The notes beneath the pieces are model-generated. The model was not told the origin of the DNA. It made no database searches and saw only the letters and a program-made list of their open reading frames with translations. From the NCBI GenBank assembly GCA_947623505.1, contig CANQGT010000006.1, positions 27,994 to 91,993 of the forward strand: a stretch of DNA of 64,000 bases. The letters are read 5' to 3'. Both the position numbers and the translations under genes were made by a program. Positions 54,930 through 62,842 of the stretch are shown one piece after another. The number at the start of each line of letters is the position of its first letter. The first letter of the stretch is position 1. This DNA is from an uncultured Clostridia bacterium. GTDB lineage: Bacteria > Bacillota > Clostridia > Oscillospirales > Acutalibacteraceae.

Positions 54930-56015
54930 TTGCCAAACAGATTATTTCAAGGCATTGTAAACCAAATGAGGGATTCGCTTGACAGGAACATCGGCGTTGT
55001 TGACGAAAGCGGTTCCGTTATCGCCTGCTCGGAACTCGGGCAGATAGGAGAAATAAGAAAGGGCGTTGTTTCCGCCGGAGTCTTTTCAGGCGTGCAGACC
55101 TGCGTTGACGGGTGCACCTATAAGGCGTTCGGCAATTCGGTTCACCCCGAGTATGCCGTTTTCCTTGACGGAACGGACGATATGAGCAAGCGTTACGCCG
55201 ATATAATCGCCGTTGCCATGGATCAGATAAAGCAGAACAACGATGAAAAATTCGACCGTTCAAATTTCGTAAAAAACGTTATTCTCGACAATATACTGCC
55301 CGGCGATATTTACATAAAAGGGCGCGAGCTCCATTTCAATAACGACGCCACGAGAGTGGTGTTCATCATCAGAATAGTAAAGCAGACCGACGTTTCGGTT
55401 TACGACGTTATTCAAAATTTCTTCCCCGATAAATCAAAGGATTTCGTTATCAATATAAACGAAACGGATATTGCCCTTATTAAAGAGGTGCGCCAAAACG
55501 TTGAGATGAAGGATCTTGAAAAACTCGCCCGCTCGATATGCGACACTCTGGCAACGGAGTTTTACTGCATGGCGGTAGTCGGCATCGGCACCTGCGTAAC
55601 GGGCATAAAGAGCCTTGCCCATTCGTTTAAGGAGGCGCAGGTGGCGCTTGAGGTAGGCAAGGTTTTTGATACCGAGCAATCGATAGTAAGCTATGAAAAT
55701 CTCGGCATAGCCCGCCTTATATATCAGCTGCCCACAACTCTTTGCGATATGTTCCTCAAAGAGGTCTTCAAGTCGGGCTCGATCGAGTCGCTCGATCAGG
55801 AAACGCTTTTCACAATTCAAAAATTTTTTGAAAACAATCTGAATGTTTCCGAAACGAGCAGAAAGCTGTTCGTCCACAGAAACACTCTTGTTTACAGGCT
55901 TGAGAAAATCAAAAAAATAACGGGGCTCGATCTTCGGGAATTTGACGACGCCATCGTCTTTAAAGTAGCTCTTATGGTAAATAAGTATCTCAACTCAAGT
56001 CCCGTAAAATATTAA
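54930..56015 (+). CDS. PucR/CdaR family transcriptional regulator
   Basis: N-terminal sensor region, GIG...SFKEAQVALEVG, C-terminal NLNVSETSRKLFVHRNTLVYRLEKI HTH; promoter TTGCAA-N17-TATAAT at 54831-54859. Confidence 0.92.
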   Translation: MPNRLFQGIVNQMRDSLDRNIGVVDESGSVIACSELGQIGEIRKGVVSAGVFSGVQTCVDGCTYKAFGNSVHPEYAVFLDGTDDMSKRYADIIAVAMDQIKQNNDEKFDRSNFVKNVILDNILPGDIYIKGRELHFNNDATRVVFIIRIVKQTDVSVYDVIQNFFPDKSKDFVININETDIALIKEVRQNVEMKDLEKLARSICDTLATEFYCMAVVGIGTCVTGIKSLAHSFKEAQVALEVGKVFDTEQSIVSYENLGIARLIYQLPTTLCDMFLKEVFKSGSIESLDQETLFTIQKFFENNLNVSETSRKLFVHRNTLVYRLEKIKKITGLDLREFDDAIVFKVALMVNKYLNSSPVKY

Positions 56016-56132
56016 GCGTTTTTTTCGCCGTCCGGATCGGGCGGCGATTTTCCTTGTTTTCGCGCCGGTTTTTTTAATTGATTTGCTCAAAATTATTAAA
56101 AAAATGTTATTTTTGTAAATTTTTGAATATTG

Positions 56133-56149
56133 TTTACAAAATAGTTACA
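56133..56149 (-). promoter_or_regulatory. WalR/YycF-type direct-repeat box upstream of ftsEX
   Basis: Minus strand reads TGTAAC-TATTT-TGTAAA, matching TGTWAH-N5-TGTWAH; it lies 28 nt upstream of TTGATT-N17-TATTAT (56178-56206). Confidence 0.6.
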
Positions 56150-56292
56150 TAATTTACAGAAAAATTATACCAAGCACTTGATTTATTGTTCGCTTTGCTT
56201 TATTATATATTAGTAAAAAAGCGTAAAGCGTTAAAAAGGCGGCGTTCAAAATCGCCGTCGGGAATTTCAAACAGATAAAGAGGTCTAAAACA

Positions 56293-57126
56293 GTGATTGA
56301 GTTTCGCGACGTATCAAAAGTGTATGACAGTAACGGCACGAAAGCGCTTAACAATGTCAACATAAAAATTGAGGACGGGGAATTTGTTTTCATCGTCGGT
56401 TCGTCCGGCGCCGGAAAAAGCACTTTTTTGAAGCTTATAATGCAGGAGGAAAAGCCTACGAGCGGCGCGGTTATCGTGGGCGATTATTCTTCGGAGACGA
56501 TAAAGAAAAGGCAGATACCGTATTACAGAAGAACTATGGGCATAGTTTTTCAGGATTTCCGCCTTATTCCGAAAATGAGCGTGTATAACAACGTGGCTTT
56601 CGCTATGCGCGTTATAGGCGCTAAGGAAAAGGAAATAAGAAAGAGGGTGCCCTATATTCTTCAGCTTGTGGGGCTTTCCCATAAGGCGCGCTCGATGCCG
56701 TATGAGCTTTCGGGCGGCGAGCAGCAGCGCGTTTCGCTCGCGAGGGCTCTTGTAAACAATCCCAAACTTATCGTGGCCGACGAGCCGACAGGAAACGTCG
56801 ATCCCGAAATGAGCCACGAAATAGTGGATATGCTTACAAAAATCAACAACAACGGAACAACGGTCATTATGGTAACTCACGAGCACGAGCTTGTGCGCGC
56901 TTTCCAGCGCAGGGTTATCGTTATCAAAAACGGGGAGGTCGTTTCGGATACTCCCGATCCCACCCACGCTCAGTTTGATTTCGATGAGGAAGAAAAGGGA
57001 ACGGATATGTTCTTTTACAACGAGGACGTAAAGTTGGGCAACGATGTGGAGGATATATTCGATTCTATCGACGATTCGCCCTACGACGGGCAGGGCGACC
57101 GATTCGGCAACGGAGGTGAGGAATAA
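56293..57126 (+). CDS. ftsE: Cell division ATP-binding protein FtsE
   Basis: GSSGAGKST, RRTMGIVFQDFRLI, LSGGEQQRV, ADEPTGNVDP; GTG start; acidic C-terminal tail. Confidence 0.95.
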   Translation: MIEFRDVSKVYDSNGTKALNNVNIKIEDGEFVFIVGSSGAGKSTFLKLIMQEEKPTSGAVIVGDYSSETIKKRQIPYYRRTMGIVFQDFRLIPKMSVYNNVAFAMRVIGAKEKEIRKRVPYILQLVGLSHKARSMPYELSGGEQQRVSLARALVNNPKLIVADEPTGNVDPEMSHEIVDMLTKINNNGTTVIMVTHEHELVRAFQRRVIVIKNGEVVSDTPDPTHAQFDFDEEEKGTDMFFYNEDVKLGNDVEDIFDSIDDSPYDGQGDRFGNGGEE

Positions 57127-58046
57127 TGACCGCGTCAAGCTTCAGATACCTTTTTAAAGAGGGTTTCAGAAATATTTGGACAAACAGTATGATGAGCATT
57201 GCTTCCGTGTGTGTGCTTATGAGCTGCCTTGTGCTTATAGGCGGCGCTTCGATGATATTCCTCAATATAGATTCGCTGCTTGGCAGAATAGAGCAGGAAA
57301 ACGTTATAATGCTTTATATTGAGGACGATACGACCGATGAGGAAATAAGCGACATGGAGCATTCGCTCAGAAAAATAGACAATATTGCCGATGTTGAATT
57401 TATAGATAAGGAATCGGCATGGCAGGAGCAGCTTGAAACTATGGAGGACGCTCAGGCGGAGTATTTTACGGAGATAAGCTCTGAAATACCGTTGCCGGAC
57501 GCGTACAAAATAACGGTGGACGATTTGACTCAGTTTGACCAGACCGTTAAGGAAATAAAAAATCTTGACCATATCGACACACTGAGGGAAAACAGGGATC
57601 TCGCGAAAAGGCTCGTTTCCATTCGCCACGGAGTGGAGATAATCGCCGTGGTAATAATAATCGTTCTTCTCGCGATAAGCCTTTTCATAATTTCAAACAC
57701 GATACGGCTTACGGTATATTCAAGAAGGCTTGAGATAGGAATAATGAAATCCGTGGGAGCCACCAACAGCTTTGTGCGATTGCCGTTTATAGTGGAAGGT
57801 ATGATACTCGGCATAATCGCGGGCATTATTTCGCTCGGGCTCGTTTGGCTGTTCTACGGCTTCGCGATAAATCAGTTCGGCGAGATACTCGGTTATCTTA
57901 ATCTTAACGCTCTTGATTTCAAGAATTACGCCCTTCCGATGCTCGGGGCTTTCGTCTGCATCGGCACTCTCACCGGCGTATGCGGCTCGGCGATTACGAT
58001 GGGCAGGTATCTTAACAGGGAAGGCAGTGAAATAAGCGGTGTCTAA
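57126..58046 (+). CDS. ftsX: Cell division permease FtsX
   Basis: KEGFRNIW..MSIAS, large extracellular loop, ISNTIRLTVYSRRLEIGIMKSVGAT, PFIVEG. Confidence 0.94.
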   Translation: MTASSFRYLFKEGFRNIWTNSMMSIASVCVLMSCLVLIGGASMIFLNIDSLLGRIEQENVIMLYIEDDTTDEEISDMEHSLRKIDNIADVEFIDKESAWQEQLETMEDAQAEYFTEISSEIPLPDAYKITVDDLTQFDQTVKEIKNLDHIDTLRENRDLAKRLVSIRHGVEIIAVVIIIVLLAISLFIISNTIRLTVYSRRLEIGIMKSVGATNSFVRLPFIVEGMILGIIAGIISLGLVWLFYGFAINQFGEILGYLNLNALDFKNYALPMLGAFVCIGTLTGVCGSAITMGRYLNREGSEISGV

Positions 58047-59259
58047 GTTTACAAAAGTCTTGTGCCTTTTGTTCTGCGTTCTTATGATTTTTTCGGCCTC
58101 AATGTCGGCAAGCGCTAAATCAACGTCGGAGTTGAAGGATGAGAGAGAAAAAATACGCAGCGAAATAGAGGCGGCGCAGAGCAAGATAAATTCTCTTAAA
58201 CAGAAAAAAGAAAAACAGCAGGAATATGTGAACGCCCTTATGGAAAAGATAGATTTGATTCAGGATAAACTGGATAATCTTGAAAATCAGAGGGACGCTT
58301 TGCAGAGCGAAATAGACGCTTTGCAGAAAAAAATAGACGATACCGAAAAGCAGATAGAGGAAACTCAAAAACAGATTGAGAAAAAGCAGGCGGAATTCAG
58401 GGATATTTATGATCTTTACTGCCAGAGACTGCGAGCCATGTATATTTCGGGCAACGTTTCCACTCTTGAGATTTTTCTCGACAGCGGCTGGGATATGAGT
58501 TCTCTGCTCACCCGCGCGCAGATGGTTAAATCCATTGCGGAAAAGGACAATGAAACGCTTGACAAGCTTATGGAAATGATGCAGGTGATAACGCAGCAGC
58601 GCCAGCTTCTCGCGGAAAAAAGTGTTGAGCTAAAAGAGGATAAGGAAAAGCTGGACGCTCAGAAGGCAGATCTTCAAAGCTCGATAAAAGATATAAGCGC
58701 CTCCAAAAGCGAGCTTGACGCGGAGGTTGCCGAATGCAACGCCGCGATAAGAAAGCTCAACAGCCAGACGGCGGAATTTCAGGAAACGATAGAAACGGAT
58801 CAAAACAGACTTAACGAGATAGAGGACGAGATACGCAACGCCGCGAATGCCGGCGCGCCGACAGGCTCATATACGCCCGGCACCGGCTCGCTCGGTTATC
58901 CGACAAGCTACAGAAGAATATCGGCGGGTTATCCGAATTATTCAAGCGGCAGGTATCACGGCGGTCTTGATTTCCCCTGCCCCACGGGAACAACGGTTTA
59001 CGCGGCGGATTCGGGATATGTATCGCTTGTAAAATATCTTACATACAGCTATGGCAGATATGTTATGATAAATCACGGAAACGGGCTTTCAACGCTTTAC
59101 GCCCACAACAGCTCGATACTTGTAAGCGAAGGCCAGGCAGTTACGAAAGGTCAGGCTATCGCGAAGTCGGGCGCTACGGGTAACGCCACCGGTCCGCATT
59201 GCCATTTTGAGGTCAGGAAAAACGGAACGAGAGTAAATCCGTGGAATTATCTCGGCTGA
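58039..59259 (+). CDS. Secreted coiled-coil plus M23 endopeptidase, copy 1
   Basis: Signal peptide, PcsB/CwlO-type coiled coil (RLRAMYISG), HGGLD and HCH zinc motifs. Confidence 0.9.
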   Translation: MSKFTKVLCLLFCVLMIFSASMSASAKSTSELKDEREKIRSEIEAAQSKINSLKQKKEKQQEYVNALMEKIDLIQDKLDNLENQRDALQSEIDALQKKIDDTEKQIEETQKQIEKKQAEFRDIYDLYCQRLRAMYISGNVSTLEIFLDSGWDMSSLLTRAQMVKSIAEKDNETLDKLMEMMQVITQQRQLLAEKSVELKEDKEKLDAQKADLQSSIKDISASKSELDAEVAECNAAIRKLNSQTAEFQETIETDQNRLNEIEDEIRNAANAGAPTGSYTPGTGSLGYPTSYRRISAGYPNYSSGRYHGGLDFPCPTGTTVYAADSGYVSLVKYLTYSYGRYVMINHGNGLSTLYAHNSSILVSEGQAVTKGQAIAKSGATGNATGPHCHFEVRKNGTRVNPWNYLG

Positions 59260-59297
59260 GGCTTTCGAGAAAATTTTAAAAGCAGGGAAGTGAATCA

Positions 59298-60734
59298 ATG
59301 AAGCGGTTCGGCATATTAAAAAAATTTTTATCGGTTTTGTCGGTTTTCTGCGTCATTGCGTTTTCCTGCGCTTTTTCCGGCGAAAATGTGTTTGCCGATG
59401 AAAAGCTTTCGCCTGAGGAGGAAAAGGCCGCCCTTGAGCAGAGAATCAAGGAAACGAACAGCAAGCTTGCTGAGCTTAAGGCCGAGTCCGCCAACACTTC
59501 GGAATATATGAATACGCTGAGCAGCAAGATAAGTTATCTTGAGCAGGAGGCGGAGCTTGTTTCGGATGATGTGAAATCGTACGAAAGCAAGGTTTCCTCA
59601 CTGCAAAGGCAGTGCGAGGAAAACGAAAAGGCGATACTTTCCACGCAGGAGGAAATAGACGAGTTGAACGTAAAACTCGGCGAATACAACGAGGCGTTCA
59701 GCGATAATTTCGACGCTTACTGCAAGCGTCTGCGCGCGATGTATGTGAGCGGCGAGACCGATATTTTCACTTTTTTGCTTACAAGCAGCGATATTTCGCA
59801 GTTTCTTACAAGATATGAGATGCTCCGCCGAGTCGCCAAGAAAGACAGCGACCTTCTTAAAAGCATCGAAAATGAACTCAACGAGATGGAAAAGATGTCG
59901 GACGAGCTTGCCCAAAAGGACGAAACGCTCACGCAGCGCCGTACGGAGCTGCTTATGGGCAAAGAAGAGCTTGAGGAAAATATTTTAAAACTGAACGAAA
60001 AGAAAAGCGATCTTGACGCGAAAAAAACAAATCTTTCCGCCGAAAGGGCAAGCGCTAATATTCTTTTAAAGAAGCTCAGCGACGAGACGGGCTATTATAC
60101 GGAATTTCTTCAGGACGACAGGGAAACGCTCGAAGAGCTTGACAGGGAGATAGAAGAAGCGGCCAAAAAGTATGCCGAAAGCCTTTCCACCACCACAACG
60201 ACCACGAAAAAACCGCAGACCACGCAGGGTGGGGAACACGGCGATGAAAATAATGATGTCAGCGGTGAACAGTCCTCTGAAAGCAACTCCTCTCAGTCGG
60301 GCAGTTCCTCAAGATATATCGAGCTGACGTATCCCGTGCCGTCTCAAAAAAGAGTTACATGCGGCATTCACGGTTACGCAGGGCACAGCGGCGCGGATTT
60401 TGCCTGCCCCACGGGCTCAAGGGTAGTCGCCGCGGAATCGGGAACGGTAATCATTTCAAAGGATCTTACAAATCCCGACGGTTCCTACAGAAGCTACGGA
60501 AGATATATAATAATAATGCACGATAAGACAACTTCCTCGGGAGATATGGTATATACTCTTTATGCGCACAACAGTTCAAGGGTGGCATATGAGGGGCAGC
60601 ACGTTGAAAAGGGGCAGCTCATAGCCTATTCGGGAAGCACAGGAAATTCTACGGGGCCGCATTGCCATTTTGAGGTCAGAACCCCCTCGTCAAATTATTC
60701 CGACTGCAAGGATCCCGAAAAATATCTCCCCTAA
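59298..60734 (+). CDS. Secreted coiled-coil plus M23 endopeptidase, copy 2, with a Thr/Ser-rich linker
   Basis: Signal peptide, RLRAMYVSG, HSGAD and HCH motifs. Confidence 0.9.
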   Translation: MKRFGILKKFLSVLSVFCVIAFSCAFSGENVFADEKLSPEEEKAALEQRIKETNSKLAELKAESANTSEYMNTLSSKISYLEQEAELVSDDVKSYESKVSSLQRQCEENEKAILSTQEEIDELNVKLGEYNEAFSDNFDAYCKRLRAMYVSGETDIFTFLLTSSDISQFLTRYEMLRRVAKKDSDLLKSIENELNEMEKMSDELAQKDETLTQRRTELLMGKEELEENILKLNEKKSDLDAKKTNLSAERASANILLKKLSDETGYYTEFLQDDRETLEELDREIEEAAKKYAESLSTTTTTTKKPQTTQGGEHGDENNDVSGEQSSESNSSQSGSSSRYIELTYPVPSQKRVTCGIHGYAGHSGADFACPTGSRVVAAESGTVIISKDLTNPDGSYRSYGRYIIIMHDKTTSSGDMVYTLYAHNSSRVAYEGQHVEKGQLIAYSGSTGNSTGPHCHFEVRTPSSNYSDCKDPEKYLP

Positions 60735-60767
60735 TGAAAAATTCGCATAAACTTCGGATGTGAGATA

Positions 60768-62216
60768 ATGAAACACAGAATTTTAATAAAGCTCGCGGCC
60801 GCGCTTACAGCGCTCTCAATGGCCTTTACCGCTTTTACCTCGGGCAGTATGTATTCTTTGGCGGACGATTCGCCGTCTCCCGATTCGGCGGTAACGGAGC
60901 AGGGCGGCGCGGAAAGCGAAAAAACCGAAAAGGAAAAGGAGGACGCCCGCAAGAAGCTCGAAACGCAGCGGGCGGAATTTGAAAGAAGCATAAAGGAGCT
61001 TGAAAAAAGGCTTGCCGATCTTTCGGCCGAGTCAAAGGAAACGGAAGAATACATAGACACGCTCGACGAAAAAATAGGTTATCTTAACGAAGAGCTGACA
61101 TTGCTTGACATTCAGATAAACTCATATATTGAAGATATTGACGCGCTTGAAGCGCAGATAAGCGAAAATCAGGCGCAGATAGACGCGCTTCAGGCGGAGG
61201 TCGACGCGGTCCAGTCAAAGCTTGACGAGCTAAACCGTCTGTTTGAGGCGAAATACGAAGCGTACTGCCTCAGGATGAGAGCCGTGTATGTCTCAGGTAC
61301 TTTAAGTCTGTTCACGGCATTGCTGACTTGTGATGATATTTCAAGCTTTTTCACAAGGTATCAGATGATAAAATCAGTTTCAAAAAGCGATTCCGCGCTT
61401 CTCGTTGATATTGAGGAGGAAACGCAGAGCATTTTGGCGCAGGAAACCGACCTGAATGAAAAAAAGGCTTCGCTCGACAAGATGAAATCCGATCTTTTTG
61501 AAAAGAAAAACGGCCTTCAGGCAAAGAAAAACACTCTGAGCGCCGCGCAGGAGGAAATGGCAAGAAAGAAGGTGGCCCTCTCAAGCGATAAGGCGGAAAG
61601 CGATAAGCTTTTCGCGGAGCTCACCGCCAAAAACGGAATGTATACGGAATTCAGAAACGAGGACGCCGAGGTAAAAAAAGCGGTCGAAAAGGAAATATCG
61701 GATCTTATAAACGGAATAATAAAGCCCGAGGACGTCACCCTCGGCACAACTGGCGACAGAGACGAAACCGTTTCAACGACTTATCTTTATACGGACGTTC
61801 ATTATAATTCGGACGCCGTGTTGAATATGACTTATCCCGTCCCCGGCCATTACGGCATTTCAGCGGGCTTCCCGAATTATTCAAACGGCAGTTATCACGG
61901 CGGTATAGATTTCCCCTGCCCGCAGGGAACAAACGTTGTCGCCGCGCAGTCGGGCGTGGTTATTTTAGTTAGGCTTCTGAATAAGAGCTACGGCCACTAT
62001 GTTATGATTTATCACGGCACCGATTCAAAGGGCAGAACGATAGTCACCCTTTACGGCCACAATTCAAAAATCCTTGTTTCAACGGGCGATACAGTCGCGA
62101 AGGGTCAGGTAATAGCGAAATCCGGCAGCACCGGCAATTCCACCGGTCCACACTGCCATTTTGAGATAAGAATAAGCAACAAAAGAACAAATCCGTCAAA
62201 TTATCTGAGCAAGTGA
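60768..62216 (+). CDS. Secreted coiled-coil plus M23 endopeptidase, copy 3
   Basis: Signal peptide, RMRAVYVSG, HGGID and HCH motifs. Confidence 0.9.
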   Translation: MKHRILIKLAAALTALSMAFTAFTSGSMYSLADDSPSPDSAVTEQGGAESEKTEKEKEDARKKLETQRAEFERSIKELEKRLADLSAESKETEEYIDTLDEKIGYLNEELTLLDIQINSYIEDIDALEAQISENQAQIDALQAEVDAVQSKLDELNRLFEAKYEAYCLRMRAVYVSGTLSLFTALLTCDDISSFFTRYQMIKSVSKSDSALLVDIEEETQSILAQETDLNEKKASLDKMKSDLFEKKNGLQAKKNTLSAAQEEMARKKVALSSDKAESDKLFAELTAKNGMYTEFRNEDAEVKKAVEKEISDLINGIIKPEDVTLGTTGDRDETVSTTYLYTDVHYNSDAVLNMTYPVPGHYGISAGFPNYSNGSYHGGIDFPCPQGTNVVAAQSGVVILVRLLNKSYGHYVMIYHGTDSKGRTIVTLYGHNSKILVSTGDTVAKGQVIAKSGSTGNSTGPHCHFEIRISNKRTNPSNYLSK

Positions 62217-62842
62217 TGAACAGAATAAATTACAGCGTAAAAACCGAAGAAATCATTAAAATCAATAAGAGAGAGCAAATTATGCCCTCTCTTTTGCTTC
62301 ATGCCTGCTGCGCCCCCTGCTCAAGCGCCTGCCTTGAATATCTGAATGAAAATTTTAAAGTAACGGTGTTTTATTACAATCCGAATATTTCTCCGATGGA
62401 GGAGTTTGAAAAGCGCCTCGCGGAGGAAAAAAGACTTGTTCTCGAAATGCCGCTTGCCGAAGAGGTGCGTATTATCGAAGGCGAATACGACCACGGCGAA
62501 TTTTTAAATGCCGTGCGCGGGCTTGAGGGCGAGCCCGAGGGAGGCAAGAGGTGCTTTGAGTGTTACCGCCTGAGACTTGAAAAAACGGCGGCGCTCGCCA
62601 AGGAGAAGGGCTTTGATTATTTTTGCACCACGCTTTCGATAAGCCCGTTAAAAAACGCCCAAAAGATAAATGAGATAGGCTATGAAATCGGCGAAAAGTA
62701 CGGCGTAAAATGGCTGCCGTCCGATTTCAAGAAAAAAGAGGGCTATAAACGCTCGATAGAGCTTTCAAAGCGGTACGGACTTTACAGGCAGAATTACTGC
62801 GGCTGTGTTTTTTCAAAAAAGGGGGAAGAAAAAGATGAATAA
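62216..62842 (+). CDS. queH: Epoxyqueuosine reductase QueH (DUF208)
   Basis: LLHACCAPCS, YYNPNI, RCFECYRLRL, FCTTLSISP, YRQNYCGC. Confidence 0.92.
   Translation: MNRINYSVKTEEIIKINKREQIMPSLLLHACCAPCSSACLEYLNENFKVTVFYYNPNISPMEEFEKRLAEEKRLVLEMPLAEEVRIIEGEYDHGEFLNAVRGLEGEPEGGKRCFECYRLRLEKTAALAKEKGFDYFCTTLSISPLKNAQKINEIGYEIGEKYGVKWLPSDFKKKEGYKRSIELSKRYGLYRQNYCGCVFSKKGEEKDE

Follow-up and report, generated by a model that had tools for sequence, protein, structure and literature searches.

Can one FtsEX complex serve more than one cell wall hydrolase? The question is raised by a stretch of 64,000 nucleotides (nt) from an uncultured Clostridia bacterium of the family Acutalibacteraceae (assembly GCA_947623505.1, contig CANQGT010000006.1, positions 27,994 to 91,993; the whole stretch is called the window below), in which three tandem genes, here named M1, M2 and M3, for coiled-coil proteins with a peptidase domain of family M23 come directly after ftsE and ftsX. 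To our knowledge, all FtsEX systems studied so far have one coiled-coil client each (EnvC, PcsB, CwlO, RipC or LdpF), and in the structures each FtsX dimer carries a single client; expansion of hydrolases into paralogues is otherwise common. Our preferred answer, which we hold with moderate confidence, is that the locus would encode three self-inhibited endopeptidases competing for a single FtsEX, with M1 as the core partner and M2 and M3 as accessory ones. The five genes lie in the window as follows:

56293-57126, + strand: ftsE, 277 amino acids (aa), an ATP-binding cassette ATPase, matched by the model TIGR02673 over aa 1-214
57126-58046, + strand: ftsX, 306 aa, with the Pfam domains FtsX_ECD at aa 61-151 and FtsX at aa 176-282
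58039-59259, + strand: M1, 406 aa, with a GTG start and an 8-nt overlap with the 3′ end of ftsX
59298-60734, + strand: M2, 478 aa, the second M23 paralogue
60768-62216, + strand: M3, 482 aa, the third M23 paralogue

An initial annotation of the window had described three paralogues of 406, 478 and 482 aa directly after ftsX and a single FtsEX to go with them; the coordinates agree exactly with the list of open reading frames, and the genome, an assembly of 1.82 Mb that is 96.7% complete, has a single FtsX_ECD domain and five M23 domains, three of the latter at this locus. The products of ftsE and ftsX both pass their family models, with 283.7 bits for TIGR02673 FtsE (cut-off 264.85) and 257.9 bits for NF038347 FtsX_Gpos (cut-off 225). 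The gaps between M1 and M2 and between M2 and M3 are 38 and 33 nt, the + strand is without a strong terminator before the next gene, queH, and ftsE-ftsX-M1-M2-M3 look like one transcription unit in this genome, in which M1 is predicted to be translationally coupled to ftsX.

Are all three products likely to be enzymes? Each has one C-terminal Peptidase_M23 domain (PF01551; E values of 1e-34, 1e-25 and 1.5e-30 and scores of 115.8, 86.7 and 102.4 bits for M1, M2 and M3, against a cut-off of 28.7 bits):

58885-59256, + strand: M23 domain of M1, with H307, D311, H356, H387 and H389; net charge +6
60315-60731, + strand: M23 domain of M2, with H363, D367, H424, H455 and H457; net charge -0.7
61824-62213, + strand: M23 domain of M3, with H377, D381, H431, H462 and H464; net charge +7

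The three domains share the motifs HxxxD, a histidine within YAHNS or YGHNS, and HCH, and the M23 zinc ligands (HxxxD and the second histidine of HxH) and the two catalytic histidines are complete in all of them. In an alignment of the M1, M2 and M3 orthologue groups together with single-copy relatives, all 90 sequences carry the five active-site residues H, D, H, H, H without exception; EnvC, when aligned through 6tpi_A, has K, V, Y, S and Y in their place. The complete zinc site that the initial annotation had set against the inactive EnvC is thus borne out. We also considered degenerate copies in other species and rejected them: apparent gaps in HxxxD were an artefact of a strict pattern, and the alignment is intact throughout.

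The signal peptides noted earlier can likewise be recognized in the sequences, all three N-termini resembling Sec signal peptides (ASA|K in M1, VFA|D in M2 and SLA|D in M3), and all three products are predicted to be secreted. The earlier description of a PcsB/CwlO-type coiled coil held in part. Its motif, R(L/M)RA(M/V)Y.SG, is present in all three proteins (aa 130-138 in M1, 144-152 in M2 and 169-177 in M3); the Pfam model CC_PcsB (PF24568, cut-off 27 bits) is passed by M2 alone (29.9 bits), with M3 below the cut-off (20.5 bits) and M1 undetected. The NCBIfam model of EnvC (NF008644) gives 36-67 bits for the three copies against a cut-off of 270, and that of PcsB (NF046104) gives 30-35 bits against 450, the C-terminal domain here being M23 and not CHAP. 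DipM, ShyA, MepM, EnvC and PcsB were each tried as named equivalogs and rejected; no named orthologue applies, because the NCBIfam scores lie far below the cut-offs.

Although alike in architecture, the three proteins share only 38-39% identity in pairwise comparison. The linker N-terminal to the M23 domain is ~20 aa in M1, ~44 aa in M2 and ~34 aa in M3, in line with the unequal linkers described before, and such linkers could possibly give the enzymes a different reach. The M2 linker is Ser/Thr/Gln-rich and disordered (residues 294-338 are at a predicted local distance difference test score, pLDDT, below 50 in AlphaFold2). In addition, the M23 domain of M2 is without a short segment ahead of the first histidine and has two inserted loops, and M3 carries an acidic N-terminal extension.

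What, then, would such enzymes do next to ftsEX? The closest relatives of known structure are EnvC proteins. A profile built from 60 family members matches EnvC chains over their full length (8i6o_E, 1.4e-45; 6tpi_A, 2.6e-44; 8hd0_E, 3.5e-43), against an E value of 1.9e-13 for the PcsB coiled coil (4cgk); 6tpi is E. coli EnvC bound to FtsX. AlphaFold2 models of M1 (pLDDT 88.3) and M2 (pLDDT 87.7; predicted template modelling score 0.70) both begin with a signal helix, which leads into the long helix I, a short turn helix and the long helix II; a post-break helix, a linker and the M23 sandwich complete the chain. Among PDB structures, Foldseek ranks EnvC in 8tzl (8tzl_E, V. cholerae FtsEX-EnvC) and 6tpi_A first for either model, with active M23 enzymes such as ShyA, Csd and LytM next. 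The global TM-scores are low (0.3-0.4), which is expected because the coiled coils are long and flexible. In the models, the helix after the hairpin (residues ~250-269 in M1 and 275-293 in M2) appears to be the equivalent of the restraining arm of EnvC, and it would dock over the active site.

The X-lobes of FtsX contact EnvC at residues 114-128, the end of helix I, and at residues ~141-160, the start of helix II, and one EnvC monomer binds two FtsX (PMC7668044). By profile alignment, if chain and protein numbers in 6tpi differ by the usual offset, the conserved YCxRLRAMYxSG of the family aligns with the first of these sites and LTRxxM...D with the second. The corresponding segments are:

58393-58554, + strand: hairpin tip of M1, the predicted FtsX-docking segment, aa 119-172, YCQRLRAMYISG...LTRAQM...D
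59673-59852, + strand: hairpin tip of M2, aa 126-185
61218-61397, + strand: hairpin tip of M3, aa 151-210

Within every orthologue group, no other part of the coiled coil is as well conserved as the tip (column conservation averaging 0.77 in M1, 0.64 in M2 and 0.73 in M3, versus 0.47-0.65 elsewhere in the coiled coil), and 31 of the 54 tip columns have one consensus across M1, M2 and M3, compared with 10 of 59 columns in helix I and 12 of 73 in helix II. A conserved tip common to all three copies is the main argument, by homology, that they all still dock on FtsX, and we infer on this ground that each of the three paralogues binds it. The interchangeable effectors proposed in the initial annotation fit these data, the predicted docking segment being the best-kept part of the coiled coil; the heteromers proposed alongside them are not supported: EnvC binds as a monomer, and we saw no sign of mixed coiled coils.

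How old is the arrangement? A profile of the three proteins finds paralogues in each of the 24 further species of the genus, three of them in 21 of these, and the arrays are mostly tandem. The copy-number survey suggested earlier was run on one genome per genus over the ~96 genera of the family, and it finds the tandem triple in this genus, in one sister genus and nowhere else; a pair of copies occurs in two further genera, and the remaining genera have one copy, or none at E < 1e-40. More distant relatives have pucR-ftsE-ftsX and then a single coiled-coil M23 gene. In a maximum-likelihood tree of 87 sequences, M1, M2 and M3 each form an orthologue clade (support 99, 99 and 98), M2 and M3 are sisters (99), and the three together form one clade (100) as against the single-copy genes, while the two-copy genera had independent duplications of their own. 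The three orthologue clades imply that two successive duplications preceded the split of the genus from its sister genus. The ratio of nonsynonymous to synonymous substitution rates (dN/dS) in the closest species pair, synonymous sites being saturated between most other pairs, is 0.08 for M1, 0.12 for M2 and 0.06 for M3, a sign of strong purifying selection. The triplication is old, stably kept and clade-restricted; in most Clostridia the gene is single-copy. M1 lies directly 3′ of ftsX in every species examined and is, to judge from tree and position, the orthologue of the single copy in other genera; M2-M3 always lie 5′ of queH-rarA in the genus, and M3 always adjoins queH. As a separate observation, in other families of Clostridia we found two M23 genes lying 1-3 kb apart (G246:C1:1073124-1077461, G148:C18:16490-20681 and G027:C29:60233-61813), which are full-length matches in G246 and G148 and match in the M23 domain only in G027.

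We propose the following mechanism for the locus. The hairpin tip of each paralogue would dock on the X-lobes of a single FtsX dimer, each FtsEX complex carrying one enzyme. When FtsE binds and hydrolyses ATP, a signal would pass through the coiled coil and free the M23 domain from its self-inhibition, and the freed domain would cleave peptidoglycan cross-links directly, with no amidase as intermediary. With a single FtsEX that offers one docking site per complex, M1, M2 and M3 would be alternative clients in competition. M1 would be the ancestral core partner, stoichiometrically coupled and with a short linker; M2 and M3, which have longer linkers and in half of the genus a promoter of their own, would bring a different reach, charge, substrate-loop geometry and regulation. 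FtsX binding, self-inhibition, direct endopeptidase activity and the division of labour are all proposed here from comparison with characterized relatives.

Several observations weigh against this proposal. In six species M2-M3-queH and ftsEX-M1 are on different contigs, with unrelated flanks present, and two more species have inserts of 1 kb and 5 kb between M1 and M2. In roughly half of the species M2-M3 forms a predicted transcription unit of its own, with a terminator and an extended -10 promoter ahead of M2, and this uncoupling suits independence from FtsEX no less than separate regulation. M2 was lost in two species, G024 (L077, G024:C14) and G002 (L040/L041), one of which has a contiguous ftsE-ftsX-M1-M3-queH. 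Conservation of the tip could be due to the folding of the coiled coil or to a partner other than FtsX. Finally, the absence of Amidase_3 from this genome may be an assembly gap, because 26 of the 31 species of the genus have one, a small protein of ~235 aa (the family norm is ~2-4); an amidase-activating role is to that extent still conceivable.

The alternative that survives best, and which we consider rather unlikely though worth serious attention, is that M1 is the sole client of FtsEX and that M2 and M3 are descendants working without it, as free or otherwise regulated secreted endopeptidases. The separated contigs, the inserts and the promoter at M2 would all agree with it, as does the fact that M1 overlaps and always adjoins ftsX and M2-M3 travels with queH-rarA; there is also a precedent in the coiled-coil protein RipA of Corynebacteriales, which is controlled without FtsEX (PMC9897464). 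It does not account well for the tip, which is conserved in M3, and nearly so in M2, to the degree seen in M1, and which keeps one consensus in more than half of its columns in all three. Furthermore, no second FtsX-type partner was found in the genome, and in the window itself the three genes follow one another at short distance with no terminator between them. The competition of three clients for one FtsEX remains the reading that we prefer.

A less probable alternative is that the three copies are functionally redundant spares, kept for dosage or for robustness, which do not divide the labour among them. Architecture and catalytic residues are the same in all three, the loss of M2 is tolerated, and redundant hydrolases are common in Firmicutes (for example PMC10653849). 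Yet at 38-39% identity each orthologue group has been kept in ~25 species under the low dN/dS values given above (0.06-0.12), and the copies differ consistently in linker length and in the charge of the M23 domain (+6, -0.7 and +7), as well as in the altered loop ahead of the first histidine and the inserted loops of M2. M1 and M3 were never lost among the species examined; M2, the least conserved copy, appears to be the most dispensable one, and because it was lost twice the three copies are not equivalent. These differences favour distinct roles for the three copies over redundancy.

It is very improbable, in our judgement, that at least one copy acts as EnvC does, as an activator of amidases and not as an enzyme. 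Homology to EnvC and likeness of fold extend over the full length, and most species of the genus do have the one small Amidase_3 mentioned above; but EnvC has lost all five of the catalytic residues that are invariant in this family, the EnvC model scores far below its cut-off, and neither Amidase_3 nor Amidase_2 was detected in this genome. SpoIID was not found in it either, and NlpC/P60 has one marginal match, away from the locus. Amidase_3 is the family of SpoIIP and CwlD. The organism is probably non-sporulating, because no SpoIID and no Amidase_3 were found, and for the same two absences we rejected sporulation-specific paralogues as an unlikely explanation of the three genes. For cleaving peptide bonds it probably relies chiefly on M23 enzymes. 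That the M23 expansion compensates for a loss of amidases is a weak suggestion: none is found here, but the genus norm is one Amidase_3.

Least of all, and almost certainly wrongly, the triplet could be read as an assembly artefact or as a recent duplication homogenized by gene conversion, for which the 46 of 50 nt shared by copies 1 and 3 (58933-58982 and 61872-61921) and a slightly greater closeness of M1-M3 pairs from the same species (0.63 versus 0.59 in this stretch and 0.61 versus 0.58 in the domain) might speak, and against which stand the same three orthologues in independent assemblies of ~25 species, a tree of the M23 domain alone that keeps M1, M2 and M3 apart (a joint M1 and M3 clade has a P value of 0.04 in the approximately unbiased test), and an identity of up to 44 of 51 nt in this stretch between M1 and M3 of different species. 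The initial annotation had found the 46 of 50 match, had considered an artefact unlikely and had suggested a check for conversion; the match is exact and the recurrence of the orthologues excludes an artefact, while the check did not turn up domain-wide conversion, which we rejected. The stretch, extended to 51 nt (46 of 51 identical in the window), encodes PNYSxGxYHGGxDFPC, conserved in M1 and M3 genus-wide, and most of the match is due to this constraint together with shared codon usage, which can also explain the slight excess in identity within species. A short conversion tract between M1 and M3 is possible.

If one FtsEX is shared, how would the array be regulated? The genes and sites around the five genes are:

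62213-62842, + strand: queH, encoding an epoxyqueuosine reductase of 209 aa (Pfam QueH, E 2e-74)
54930-56015, 5′ of ftsE: gene for a PucR/CdaR-type regulator (GGDEF_2 and HTH_30)
56025-56047: hairpin terminator of pucR
56133-56149, - strand: candidate WalR-type direct repeat TGTAAC-N5-TGTAAA, 5′ of ftsE
56178-56206, + strand: promoter-like site TTGATT-17-TATTAT, 5′ of ftsE, a pattern match from a consensus scan

On the same strand and 108-164 nt 5′ of ftsE, the pattern TGTWAH-N5-TGTWAH recurs at 23 of the 24 triplet-clade loci (those with the box include L001, L012-L027 and L033-L043), versus 1 of 18 single-copy outgroup loci; the sole triplet-clade locus without it has just 100 nt of upstream DNA. 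The WalR-type repeat is a possible regulator site of the operon. The best WalK-like kinase, a protein of 614 aa at G000:C12:47442-48914 (L052), reaches 236 bits against a cut-off of 725 (model positions 77-593), and therefore a WalRK system is not established and the kinase is a candidate sensor. In several species there is a pair of such boxes, overlapping and set 20 nt apart, and the appearance of the box coincides with the clade that bears the triplication.

A second conserved element lies further into the array. At the loci L020-L025, L032, L034, L036, L038 and L042, which represent the half of the genus in which M2 stands apart from M1, a terminator hairpin and a conserved block are found ahead of M2; the block, TTTTACTTATAATAATAA-(A/T)TGTG(G/C/T)TA(A/T)(A/T)AT, consists of an extended -10 promoter and a conserved upstream element. 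At the other end of the array, queH is probably in the same transcript as M3 because its start overlaps the M3 stop, its function being unrelated, and rarA lies 3′ of queH. Upstream, the PucR/CdaR regulator gene is found directly 5′ of ftsE across the family, with 66-92% identity to the window copy versus 35-74% for FtsX; in single-copy genera it is separated from ftsE by ~10-40 nt, and in the triplet clade by a terminator and an intergenic region of ~280 nt. We also observed that FtsE carries an acidic C-terminal tail of ~60 aa (56935-57126, aa 215-277; DPTHAQFDFDEEEKGTDMFFYNEDV...GNGGEE), past the 214 positions of the model and unusual for FtsE.

Which of the known FtsEX systems does the locus resemble most? 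It shares with FtsEX-EnvC (E. coli, V. cholerae and P. aeruginosa; 6tpi, 8hd0, 8tzl and 8i6o) the operon link to ftsEX and, as far as the models go, a secreted antiparallel coiled-coil hairpin with a helix in the arm position and a C-terminal LytM/M23 domain. Unlike the family described here, EnvC has a dead LytM domain, activates AmiA and AmiB and is single-copy; here there are three paralogues per FtsEX, and the host is of Gram-positive type. In the strict meaning of the name, an amidase activator with a dead LytM domain, the proteins are no EnvC, while their fold, gene context and probable mechanism are EnvC-like. PcsB of S. pneumoniae (4cgk) is an active secreted coiled-coil hydrolase under direct FtsEX control in a Gram-positive, as the present proteins would be; it differs in having a CHAP domain and in being single-copy. 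pcsB is under WalR control (PMC6403190), and a candidate WalR-type box lies upstream of the present operon as well.

FtsEX-CwlO of Bacillus subtilis and FtsEX-RipC of Mycobacterium and Corynebacterium consist of FtsEX and a coiled-coil endopeptidase that is activated and cuts peptide stems or cross-links (PMC6705773, PMC6705760, PMC11627006). The scheme proposed here would follow the logic of PcsB, CwlO and RipC, in which FtsEX acts on an active hydrolase directly. The catalytic domain of CwlO and RipC is NlpC/P60 and there is one client per FtsEX, in contrast to M23 and three candidate clients here. CwlO requires the cofactors SweC and SweD. The M23 domains resemble those of the autoinhibited ShyA and MepM (6ue4 and 6u2a; 37-42% identity over ~125 residues, root-mean-square deviation of 2.0-2.4 Å), which have an intact zinc site and intramolecular occlusion; in ShyA the occluding part is an N-terminal LysM-like domain, where a coiled-coil arm is predicted for the present proteins, and there is no coupling to FtsEX. 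Among Clostridia, C. difficile is reported to be without FtsEX (PMC12140426). Our literature search found nothing on several M23 clients of one FtsEX, nor on FtsEX-M23 in Clostridia, and a 2024 review of FtsEX, by a search for terms, mentions neither paralogues nor Clostridia nor multiple hydrolases.

Taken further, one FtsEX may be a shared, ATP-driven switch for three competing active EnvC-like endopeptidases, with partner exchange at one docking site tuned by linker length, by domain charge and, in part of the genus, by separate promoters for M2-M3, and with the array tied to wall-stress homeostasis through the WalR-type box; we put this fuller reading forward tentatively, as a possibility somewhat short of an even chance. 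Clostridia proteins annotated as EnvC would, by their sequences, be enzymes themselves and not activators, which bears on the annotation of thousands of gut genomes. Practical use is limited, most of the hosts being uncultured bacteria from gut and rumen. Three diverged candidate clients with intact sites, long kept beside one FtsEX, are a natural experiment, in which one can address how the choice of client is made at the X-lobe and whether FtsEX controls several enzymes of differing reach or specificity. If the shared switch is real, an amidase-poor, non-sporulating Gram-positive could time and layer the cleavage of its wall with one motor, and such layered cleavage would serve both growth and separation.

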